Shown: piece by piece, positions 28,371-30,572 of the stretch
Layout: each line of letters starts with the position of its first letter
How positions within the stretch are numbered: the stretch's first letter is position 1
Assembly (NCBI GenBank): GCA_964010765.1
Contig: CAXGMD010000015.1
Location: 1 to 49,856 of the forward strand
Direction: 5' to 3'
Source: an uncultured bacterium
GTDB lineage: Bacteria; SAR324; NAC60-12
Length of the DNA stretch: 49,856 nt
Program-made: the position numbers and the translations under genes
The notes under the pieces: generated by a model
Seen by the model: only the letters and a program-made list of their open reading frames with translations
Told to the model about the DNA's origin: nothing
Databases searched by the model: none

Positions 28371-29201
28371 GTGTCAACTGATTCGCTAACAATCTTGCAT
28401 CTGTCTGACTTACACTTCAGTGCATATCCCAAAAATTGGGACCAGTGGTTTTCTAAACGACTACTGGGAGCTACCAACTGGTGGCTGAACCGGAGCTCAA
28501 AATATCCATCACAACGCTGCCTTCAACTGATTGAAGTTGTGAGACAGATGGGTTGGGATCACTTGGTGATTAGCGGAGATCTCACACAACTTGCGCTACC
28601 TGAGGAATTTGCCAAAGCACGAATGGCTTTGCGGCCTCTCTTACAGAATCAGGAAAGAGTTAGCATTGTTCCTGGGAATCATGATTACTACGTTAGCGAA
28701 ACTGAGGAATCAGACTATTTCCGAAGCTACTTTGGAAGTTTCTTTGGCAAAAATGAAATTCACACCCGTCGATTGAATCAGGATTGGCACTTGATTGGTT
28801 GGCACAGCGCAACACCAACACCTTGGTACAGCGCTTCTGGCTGTGTCCGGCGTCAAACGCTAAAGGCCACAGACGAGTACCTGCAACAACAAGCGGCAGA
28901 TACGCGGTTTGTTCTGGTCAACCACTACCCAATCAGCTTCCCAGACAGGGAACACGACACGAAACACGAGTTGTTGAACTTGGAGCAGGTCCAGTATTGG
29001 CTGAGCAATCGGCCACAGATTCGACTATACCTGCATGGACACATTCATCATAACTGGCATCATGTGCAGCAATATGCATCGCATTCGCTGCATGTTGTCA
29101 ATTCGGCTTCATCGACCATGATTGACGAGAAGTCTACATCCAGTTTTCACCGTATTCGGCTGCATAAAGACCAAATACAAGTGGAACCTATTAGTTTTTG
29201 A
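28371..29201 (+). CDS. Metallophosphoesterase (Icc/CpdA-like)
   Basis: HLSDLH, SGDLT, PGNHD, HYP, LHGHIH. Confidence 0.88.
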   Translation: MSTDSLTILHLSDLHFSAYPKNWDQWFSKRLLGATNWWLNRSSKYPSQRCLQLIEVVRQMGWDHLVISGDLTQLALPEEFAKARMALRPLLQNQERVSIVPGNHDYYVSETEESDYFRSYFGSFFGKNEIHTRRLNQDWHLIGWHSATPTPWYSASGCVRRQTLKATDEYLQQQAADTRFVLVNHYPISFPDREHDTKHELLNLEQVQYWLSNRPQIRLYLHGHIHHNWHHVQQYASHSLHVVNSASSTMIDEKSTSSFHRIRLHKDQIQVEPISF

Positions 29202-29207
29202 AAGCCC

Positions 29208-29615
29208 ATGTCCAAACTTTGGTTATCCTTCTGCTGTCTAGCTCTCGCTTCTCCGGTGTTTGCCCAAGGAAATAGCATATCTGGCAACCGCTGTGCTGAA
29301 GCAATCCGTCAACTGACAGAATTCGAACCAACTGGAATCTACGGAAGTAGCGTCGAACACGAATGGACACCGGCTTCAATGTATCTGTTGCAGCGAGAAG
29401 CGGAGAAATATCGGGTACTGCACCGACATTTTCTAGATCAGGTAGAAGATTGGCGTTTCGAAGTGCTGGAAATGAAAGGGGGGAAAACGATGATGTTTGT
29501 TTTCGCTAAAACTTTTGAACCTCGCTACTGCGAAGGCCCTAACGCTTTTTTTGTCAAGAGACTCAAGCAGGAGCCGATTGGGGAAACTCGCGCACGAGTT
29601 TCAGACAGGAGGTAA
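29208..29615 (+). CDS. Hypothetical exported protein
   Basis: Signal peptide ending VFA-Q; 6 nt downstream of the phosphoesterase on the same strand. Confidence 0.65.
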   Translation: MSKLWLSFCCLALASPVFAQGNSISGNRCAEAIRQLTEFEPTGIYGSSVEHEWTPASMYLLQREAEKYRVLHRHFLDQVEDWRFEVLEMKGGKTMMFVFAKTFEPRYCEGPNAFFVKRLKQEPIGETRARVSDRR

Positions 29616-29726
29616 ATTTTCTTCCCGATTTCGTTTCCGGGAATTCCATCCGTGGCGCATTCGCTCCAGCGTCTGCTGCCACAGCATCTCTTCAAATTGT
29701 CGCAGAGAAAGGGGTTGATTCTTCAT
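29601..29726 (-). CDS. Putative 41-aa small protein
   Basis: MKNQPLSLRQFEEMLWQQTLERMRHGWNSRKRNREENLPPV, with GAGGGA upstream of the ATG; follows the SutA-like ORF. Confidence 0.4.
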   Translation of the reverse strand: MKNQPLSLRQFEEMLWQQTLERMRHGWNSRKRNREENLPPV

Positions 29727-29760
29727 GACTCGTCCCTCTTTCGGAAGTCTGCGTCATTGC

Positions 29761-29937
29761 TTACCACAAATCGCTTTCCTGAACTTCAATCATCTCCAGG
29801 ACATCTTCCGTCAGAATTAGGTCATCACCGAAAATTGGTTCTCCAACTACTTTGTCAATCTGCTGAATTTGTCCACCTCGCTCCAGATAACGAGTGGTAG
29901 CTGCTTGAATTTCTTCGCGAGTGATTTGAAGGATCAT
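29761..29937 (-). CDS. 58-aa SutA RNAP-binding-domain-like small protein
   Basis: AAGGAGA RBS; MILQITREEIQAATTRYLERGGQIQQIDKVVGEPIFGDDLILTEDVLEMIEVQESDLW. The helix plus (F/Y)LxRGGxI/VQxI pattern resembles Pseudomonas SutA. Below the ORF-track length cutoff. Confidence 0.7.
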   Translation of the reverse strand: MILQITREEIQAATTRYLERGGQIQQIDKVVGEPIFGDDLILTEDVLEMIEVQESDLW

Positions 29938-30182
29938 GGGATCTCCTTAATAAATCAATTTTTTATTAGTGAATGATTTCAGATGCCTAATTAATCTTAC
30001 TCAAGAATTATTAAGGCCGTTTATACACAAACTGCAGTATTCATACCACGAATAAAAAAATTTCTTACTACCCATGATTTCCCAAAACTTTATTTTTGGT
30101 TGGAAATCCGCCAAAATAAGTTTTTTGTGATTCTTACCTAATACAATCTTTTCTGGTTTCTTATTCAGGGAGGAAATAACCC

Positions 30183-30572
30183 ATGGCAGAAACCACATCA
30201 GAATCTGCACTTTCCGAAGAAGAATTGGAATATTTTCGCAAGAAGTTGCTCGCAATGCGTGATGAGATTTACGCAGAAAGCGCAGCAACTGTTGAGGAAA
30301 TGCAGAATGAGTCTACTCTCTACCCGGATCCAAACGACCGAGCCAGCCTGGAAGCCGAGCACTTCAACACCCTAAGGATCAGAGATCGTGAACGAAAGTT
30401 ACTCGGTAAGATTGAGGCTGCCTTACAGCGTATTGAAGATGGTACTTTCGGTATTTGTGAGATCACCGGCGAGCCGATTGAAAGAAAACGTCTGGAAGCC
30501 CGCCCCGTCACTACTCTCAGTCTGAAGGCAAAGGAAGAGCAGGAGCTCGAAGAACGTCGTCAACATCGCTGA
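30183..30572 (+). CDS. dksA: RNA polymerase-binding transcription factor DksA, 1-Cys variant
   Basis: DPNDRA coiled-coil tip, RDRERKLLGKI, globular domain CxxT-x17-SxxA; GGAGG RBS. Confidence 0.95.
   Translation: MAETTSESALSEEELEYFRKKLLAMRDEIYAESAATVEEMQNESTLYPDPNDRASLEAEHFNTLRIRDRERKLLGKIEAALQRIEDGTFGICEITGEPIERKRLEARPVTTLSLKAKEEQELEERRQHR

Follow-up and report, generated by a model that had tools for sequence, protein, structure and literature searches.

A SAR324 microprotein predicted to join a SutA-type RNA polymerase-docking domain to a conserved acidic-hydrophobic C-terminal peptide

SutA of Pseudomonas aeruginosa is a 105-aa protein (SutA-RBD family PF20661; NCBIfam equivalog NF041490; PDB entries 7F0R, 7XL3, and 7XL4) whose complex with RNA polymerase (RNAP) is described in a structural study (He et al. 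2022, PMC9300723). In that study, residues 57-90 of SutA bind the β protrusion, and binding is impaired by substituting L67, M71, F74, L75, V81, I84, K60, R64, G78, or G79; residues 77-90 cross β1 toward σ region 3.1. The model proposed there has the D/E-rich tail guide a wedge loop, residues 54-57 immediately N-terminal to the helix, into the gap between the protrusion and the lobe, opening the lobe (PMC9300723). The same study and the corresponding passages of a preprint (bioRxiv 10.1101/423384) state that activation requires this N-terminal tail, and the preprint adds that SutA minus the N-tail inhibits rrn transcription in vitro in a dose-dependent manner. As to range, the two sources confine SutA to a handful of gammaproteobacterial orders, naming Pseudomonadales/Alteromonadales (PMC9300723) or a Pseudomonadales-Oceanospirillales clade (10.1101/423384), and a 2026 preprint concerns Pseudomonadaceae (10.64898/2026.06.26.734693). 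Here, we describe a 58-aa microprotein encoded on contig CAXGMD010000015.1 (assembly GCA_964010765.1) of an uncultured SAR324 bacterium of the lineage NAC60-12; the whole 49,856-nt stretch that was analyzed is referred to below as the window. Judged by sequence, residues 5-34 of the microprotein share homology with the domain through which SutA of Pseudomonas binds RNAP. We think it probable that the protein is a SAR324 microprotein that docks on the RNAP β protrusion, carries a new effector tail with which it modulates initiation, and is expressed from a σ54-type promoter.

The 58-codon open reading frame (ORF) is a real gene and not a chance frame, because a Shine-Dalgarno (SD) site precedes it, the ratio of nonsynonymous to synonymous substitution rates (dN/dS) is 0-0.09 in seven of seven pairings of the window genome with same-genus genomes, full-length orthologs occur in four further genera, and the exact protein sequence has been called as a gene on at least 1000 public contigs. 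In the pairing with genome G008, 0 nonsynonymous and 10 synonymous differences are found; in that with the most distant genome, G001, dN is 0.08 and dS is 2.6. An AGGAG-type SD site stands before the start codon in every orthologous locus. A sequence-only reading of this DNA had noted a strong ribosome-binding site, in agreement with the AAGGAG found 5 nt from the ATG, and the peptide that it quoted is present in the translation of the ORF; two checks that it had proposed, on dN/dS and on conservation in relatives, are borne out by the substitution ratios above and by the orthologs described next. It had also called the gene unannotated. This holds for the name, given that the 58-member cluster of the microprotein has three named members, all "hypothetical protein", but not for the sequence, which is on the public contigs counted above and for which a PF20661.3 assignment is precomputed on 8 of 10 close homologs. 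The whole protein has a pI of 4.05. Contigs from RNA libraries span the ORF in four of four libraries from four studies; such contigs are no proof of transcription, as DNA carry-over is possible, their depth gives no ranking of genes, and an uncovered stretch proves nothing.

A protein search of 41 related genomes located the microprotein in all eight other genomes of the genus and full-length orthologs of 41-54% identity in genera g2, g4, g11, and g12 of the same SAR324 family. The two-module family appears to be narrow, because phmmer returned just 14 proteins at E<=0.001 among 1.84 billion representatives, and as far as sequence matches tell, it is confined to SAR324 bacteria in the collections searched. 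A search of the Atlas returned essentially the microprotein's own cluster (score 0.96), with PF20661 on 30% of the members. Two of the nine loci from a single-protein locus scan were rejected as spurious: L034 is a 468-aa membrane protein of Anaerolineales with a DDLILTED-like run, and L035 is an antisense frame of a carbamoyltransferase gene. The search for longer, fused forms gave five matches of 104-303 aa. Among these, P0016 is an upstream-extended open frame at locus L021, and P0023 (104 aa, on a 108-kb contig) and P0024, P0025, and P0026 (on contigs of ∼1-2.6 kb) were set aside as probable, though unproven, gene-calling read-through.

The N-terminal module consists of a helix at about residues 7-19, the glycines G21 and G22, a short strand (I24-I27), and then V30, V31, G32, E33, and P34. 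Residues 6-29 match PF20661 at E 5.8e-7 with 29.2 bits in hmmscan, where the gathering cut-off is 29.3, and a six-frame search gives 28.8 bits, or 29.3 if neighbors in frame are counted. The family matches 11 of 12 orthologs at E<=0.01 (best 9e-8). When a profile of nine orthologs was compared with PDB, SutA (7f0r_G) was at the top of 18 matches at E<=10, with an E of 6.7e-4 as against 0.22 for the next match, and the two sequences align from the helix-initial Arg to the end of the VVGEP/VVADP segment. The SutA interface residues were transferred through this alignment (chain numbers are offset by 4): L67 corresponds to I10 of the microprotein, M71 to T14, F74 to Y17, L75 to L18, V81 to I24, I84 to I27, K60 to L3, R64 to R7, G78 to G21, and G79 to G22. 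Positions 10, 17, 18, 24, and 27 are hydrophobic in all 12 orthologs, position 14 is hydrophobic in 10 (the other two have Thr), R7 is Arg in 9 of the 12, and both glycines are Gly throughout. Nine of the ten SutA interface positions are thus kept in kind, the sole exception being that of K60. Because these positions are conserved and the residues between them are variable, the pattern of conservation is that of the SutA interface. On these results the earlier proposal of a SutA-like N-terminal half, for which a hidden Markov model search against the SutA domain had been suggested, can be retained.

Other profile searches contributed less. The model of the PFL_1563 family of small proteins (NF058628, 51 positions) matches residues 5-29 with an E of 4.2e-6, but membership in that family was rejected at 26.3 bits against a cut-off of 60; a full-text search of the literature did not find a paper on the family. 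Against PHROGs, there is one weak match, to phrog_31907 of unknown function (E 0.0027). A full-text literature search for SutA-like or PF20661 proteins, which did not extend to the supplements of papers, returned a 2018 preprint only.

Some of the results tell against docking on RNAP. The score of the window protein lies 0.1 bit below the curated PF20661 cut-off, and in the window's genus a Thr (T14) stands where SutA uses Met. The motif is short, and segments of ribosomal protein uL16 appear in the same PDB search at E about 0.4. An AlphaFold2 monomer model with helices at 7-19 and 44-50, the latter of low confidence, is itself of low confidence (predicted local distance difference test, pLDDT, 61.8). 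The AlphaFold-type comparison with RpoB that the sequence-only reading had asked for was run with RpoB residues 1-560 (18-row alignment), the microprotein (12 rows), and three controls. It scored 0.54 against 0.00 for the best control, with at least 81% of contacts shared between runs and a partner pLDDT of at least 63, and this amounts to weak support. In the calibration of the tool, 116 of 157 solved complexes pass the mark, as do 2 of 215 mismatched pairs; only 18 of the 157 solved complexes, and both of the passing mismatches, pass with scores of 0.60 or less. The score of 0.54 falls in this band, in which most passes are wrong unless the pairing was already a likely one. A SutA-RNAP complex has been solved, so the pass may be a memory of that likeness. 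The prediction returned no contacts and says nothing on the placement of the tail.

It is nevertheless unlikely, in our estimate, that the SutA-like motif arose by convergence or was reused as a generic docking peptide for a partner other than RNAP, such as a lone σ, a σ54 activator, or a site on the ribosome or on a chaperone. The conserved positions are the contacts that SutA makes with the β protrusion, including both glycines and the strand residues, and the similarity continues through VVGEP/VVADP. Moreover, at E<=0.001, PF20661 has matches in 62 of the 88 SAR324 genomes and in none of 14 controls, and one paralog in the window genome scores 40-41 bits, well above the cut-off. The idea of another partner draws on a match that spans only about 24-30 residues at the family threshold, on the weak uL16 look-alikes, on the possibility that the complex prediction recalls the solved structure, and on a tail without a known Pfam family.

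The tail is the second module. Residues 35-58 contain eight D/E and no K/R, with an aromatic or hydrophobic end, which confirms the acidic C-terminus seen in the sequence-only reading. The class of residue is invariant in 12 sequences at positions 36, 39-42, 44, 45, 47-49, 51, 54, and 56-58; G32, E33, P34, and E48 are identical in all 12; and conservation of residue class in the tail equals that of the docking domain. No Pfam family covers residues 35-58 in the window protein or in the orthologs scanned. To judge from this alignment, the tail is a position-specific conserved peptide and not a loose polyanion, which is the signature of a peptide that would fold on a specific surface. On the other side of the domain, all 12 orthologs have just 4-6 residues ahead of the helix. 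Residues 1-4, the counterpart in sequence of the SutA wedge loop, are variable and have no N-terminal domain (NTD) to lead them.

The helix, the Gly-Gly turn, the short strand, and a VV-x-[DE]-P segment are common to SutA and the microprotein, and both proteins are small, acidic, and largely disordered alone. SutA has an N-terminal D/E tail and an NTD-led wedge loop, whereas the microprotein lacks both and instead carries a conserved 24-residue acidic-amphipathic C-tail where SutA has a short one. The hosts belong to different phyla, and the SAR324 genomes hold several paralogs each. Its match to the SutA equivalog model NF041490 (15.8 bits, E 0.019, model positions 65-96, cut-off 145) places the microprotein outside the SutA orthologs. 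Of the forms that have been tested, the nearest in architecture is the SutA ΔN construct of Bergkessel et al. (10.1101/423384), the docking domain minus the N-terminal acidic tail; that construct, however, is a laboratory truncation with SutA's own short C-tail.

These differences bear on the proposal, made in the sequence-only reading, of a minimal SutA with its tail moved to the C-terminus and a starvation module formed with DksA. Such a protein would do the job of SutA, activating the σS and housekeeping holoenzymes at rRNA-type promoters in slow growth. The homologous domain with its conserved interface, the acidic tail, and the location of dksA all fit: dksA is head-to-head with the gene in the window genome and in seven of its eight congeners, with the remaining locus truncated by a contig end, and DksA/TraR and SutA are both stated to work by opening the β lobe (PMC9300723, in the part used here). 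The mechanism fits poorly. SutA requires its N-terminal D/E tail in order to activate, and the ΔN form inhibits, according to the same passages of the two sources (PMC9300723; 10.1101/423384). The microprotein would not be SutA in mechanism, because the N-terminal D/E tail is absent and the acidic part, a conserved peptide, leaves from the opposite end of the domain; the equivalog score, too, is far from its cut-off. As for the module, dksA lies within 1.5 kb of the ortholog in 0 of 7 loci from four other genera, and therefore the adjacency is a genus-level rearrangement and not a conserved module. The divergent neighbor in four of these seven loci is a gene for indole-3-glycerol-phosphate synthase (trpC-like), with a response-regulator gene beyond it, and in one (L021) it is a σ54 activator gene (Sigma54_activat). 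The synteny with dksA that had been put forward as a check thus holds within the genus and fails outside it, and the gene has a σ54-type element of its own in nine of nine loci. We rate a true minimal SutA as improbable. The sequence-only interpretation was, in sum, half right, in that the SutA-type docking domain holds and the SutA mechanism and the conserved DksA module fail.

From these comparisons, we infer RNAP binding, where the tail runs and what it contacts, which way the effect goes, and σ54 dependence, as follows. In the reading that we favor, a β-protrusion-docking microprotein with a new effector tail, residues 5-34 would dock in the hydrophobic groove of the protrusion through the helix, the Gly-Gly turn, and the short strand. 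Residues 35-58 would exit at the end that in SutA crosses the top of β1 toward σ region 3.1, and because of this exit, the tail is expected at σ or at the upstream edge of the DNA cleft, where it may make contact. Unlike SutA, it would not wedge the β lobe open from the gap between protrusion and lobe. The net effect would be a modulation of initiation, with inhibition or a changed preference for σ or promoter as likely as activation. It is very unlikely that the protein is instead a natural dominant-negative "SutA without N-tail", a docking-only peptide that blocks paralogs or other factors at the β protrusion and uses its tail for stability or turnover, since the position-by-position conservation of the tail is easier to reconcile with a specific contact than with a degron or spacer, even though SutA minus its N-tail inhibits transcription dose-dependently (10.1101/423384, as cited above) and at least five microproteins of this type in the genome would compete for one site.

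We next consider the promoter. The σ54 consensus is TGGCAC-N5-TTGCW, with GG and GC 10 nt apart and transcription starting about 12 nt past the GC. In an alignment of the spacer between the microprotein gene and dksA across the genus, a conserved TGGCA(T/C)G-N4-(C/G)TGCA block is oriented toward the microprotein gene. When upstream regions are scored against the consensus given above, a GG-N10-GC element is found 39-96 nt before the ATG in nine of nine orthologous loci from five genera, with flanks that cannot be aligned. A random 100-nt window of the genome reaches the score threshold with a chance of 0.078, and a loose pattern that fits all nine loci is expected 0.0074 times per 100 nt. The genome encodes RpoN (337 bits). 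We conclude that a σ54-type element travels with the gene across five genera and that expression is probably driven by a σ54-type promoter, the case resting on conservation across loci whose kinship means that they are not independent. A dual arrangement is possible, in which the σ54-type promoter is joined by a proximal σ70-like promoter, TTGAGT-17-TGAAAT.

Against the σ54 assignment stand several observations. The element in the window, TGGTAT/CTGCA, is weaker than the copies in relatives, and within the window alone one such match is no more than chance would give (6 found, 6.55 expected). The pattern was partly shaped by sequences that were later counted. In a stringent genome-wide scan, 265 sites were found, of which 22 lie outside long open frames and 14 of these are then followed by an SD-preceded ORF; wrong spacings give 7-10, which makes the excess modest. 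In two studies, contigs from RNA libraries stop at 29968 and 29971; the element would place the start near 30022, about 50 nt farther upstream. These ends sit just past the σ70-like sequence, which is a weak hint to it; in library X1, the next contig begins at 29970, so the ends may be an assembly break. Libraries X3 and X11 have no contig cover on 29972-30191. A scan of 29400-30300 with the σ70 consensus listed no promoter-like sites, TTGAGT-17-TGAAAT included, and two terminator-like sites, on the + strand only, were found in the same interval. Rfam gave nothing at E<=1 in 29300-30400.

The 14 scan sites include those of amtB (ammonium transporter), a flgB-like rod gene, fliN, the microprotein gene, and the gene of a second SutA-RBD-like microprotein. 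Ammonium transporter, flagellar rod, and fliN genes are classical σ54 targets. We note that the 265 sites of TGG[CT]-N7-[TC]TGC[AT] are fewer than those with spacers of 5, 6, 8, or 9 (418-474 sites), a deficit that may reflect codon-phase effects or the avoidance of spurious σ54 sites.

The microprotein is one of several of its kind. SAR324 genomes have up to seven PF20661 matches each, almost all of which fall in ORFs of about 55-140 codons. In the window genome, they fall on contigs C45 (40-41 bits), C15 (this gene), and C80 and C46 (about 20 bits each), and with a paralog on C1, the genome holds at least five genes for microproteins with a SutA-RBD-type domain. The C-tails of the C45 (L001:1453-1695, 40.3 bits) and C46 (L004:1471-1680, 20.0 bits) gene products differ, and a 144-codon ORF begins 8 nt after the C45 gene. 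The C80 paralog is an 81-aa ORF (L003:1416-1661, PF20661 E 3.9e-4) whose N-terminal part is acidic. Ahead of it lies an inverted repeat, TTAGCACTT-N9-GAGTGCTAA (L003:1363-1389), which we take to match the CIRCE/HrcA heat-shock operator. The C1 paralog, a 77-aa ORF (C1:25638-25868; L062:247-477), is 44% identical to the C80 protein (E 1e-15), has no match in Pfam, and is preceded at 81 nt by a σ54-type element, TGGCAGTTCCCTTGCA (C1:25542-25557). In genus g11, the ortholog is followed immediately by a tandem paralog of 52 aa (L016:1240-1398 on the - strand, L015:1767-1925 on the + strand), in which the helix and the acidic tail are retained and the Arg-Gly-Gly turn and the strand are missing.

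A broader idea, doubtful at present but less so than the alternatives weighed above, is that in SAR324 the docking peptide of SutA serves as a portable plug, with a set of microproteins that compete for the β protrusion, each bringing its own acidic effector peptide and stress input. The inputs would be a σ54-type element for this gene and for the C1 paralog and a CIRCE-like operator for the C80 paralog. If this were true, one of the dark ocean's most abundant lineages would exchange accessory RNAP "subunits" in a regulon-specific way, and the C-tail of the microprotein would mark out a new site of contact with the holoenzyme. To our knowledge, SutA is the sole characterized factor that uses the β-protrusion site of RNAP. 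Because its docking domain occurs in another phylum and appears to have been multiplied there into families of proteins of 50-80 residues with new conserved tails and differing promoter types, the findings suggest that small regulators in general use the β protrusion as a landing pad. Such microproteins are short, readily synthesized peptides with which the protrusion could be probed. We know of no genetic system for SAR324, and the microproteins may be among the few handles on how transcription is reset under nutrient or proteotoxic stress in this lineage.

The features of the locus are collected in Table 1.

Table 1. Features at the microprotein locus (window coordinates)
Feature	Position	Strand	Basis and remarks
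58-aa microprotein CDS	29761..29937	-	ORF list, dN/dS, orthologs in five genera; stop codon at 29761-29763
Residues 5-34, putative SutA-type RNAP-binding domain	29836..29925	-	PF20661, profile against PDB, interface residues, AlphaFold2 helix
Residues 35-58, acidic-hydrophobic C-terminal peptide	29764..29835	-	Composition, conservation of residue class
Shine-Dalgarno AAGGAG	29943..29948	-	Sequence; 5 nt 5' of the microprotein ATG
Putative σ54-type -24/-12 element TGGTATGAATACTGCA, GG-N10-GC	30033..30048	-	Pattern match; 96 nt before the ATG, toward the microprotein gene
Possible proximal σ70-like promoter TTGAGT-17-TGAAAT	29976..30004	-	Read by eye
Divergent spacer, microprotein gene/dksA	29938..30182	.	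245 nt, 30.6% GC
dksA, 129 aa	30183..30572	+	TIGR02420 131.3 bits (cut-off 115.5); PF21157, PF01258
Candidate second small ORF, 41 aa	29601..29726	-	34 nt downstream of the microprotein gene, same strand

The divergent spacer is as AT-rich as the sequence-only reading had it: the window as a whole has 47.8% GC, and the spacer is at the 0.1 percentile among 245-nt windows. Blocks within it are conserved in the alignment of the genus genomes. The DksA protein has a single Cys and keeps a D-x-x-D-x-A stretch (DPNDRA) in its coiled-coil region. DksA of Escherichia coli has a four-Cys zinc finger; the DksA of the window may, from its sequence, be of the zinc-independent type.

Downstream of the microprotein gene, the 41-codon ORF has GAGGG ahead of its ATG and overlaps the end of a convergent 135-aa ORF by 15 nt. 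Its frame is open in all eight genus genomes compared, with a dN/dS of 0-0.39 from few changes, and it has no match in Pfam or PHROG. One RNA-library contig (library X3, 29529-29971) carries both this ORF and the microprotein gene. The convergent 135-aa ORF (29208-29615, + strand) belongs to no Pfam family, has a signal-peptide-like start, and is kept in the genus with a dN/dS of 0.05-0.20; it adjoins a calcineurin-like phosphoesterase gene at 28371-29201.

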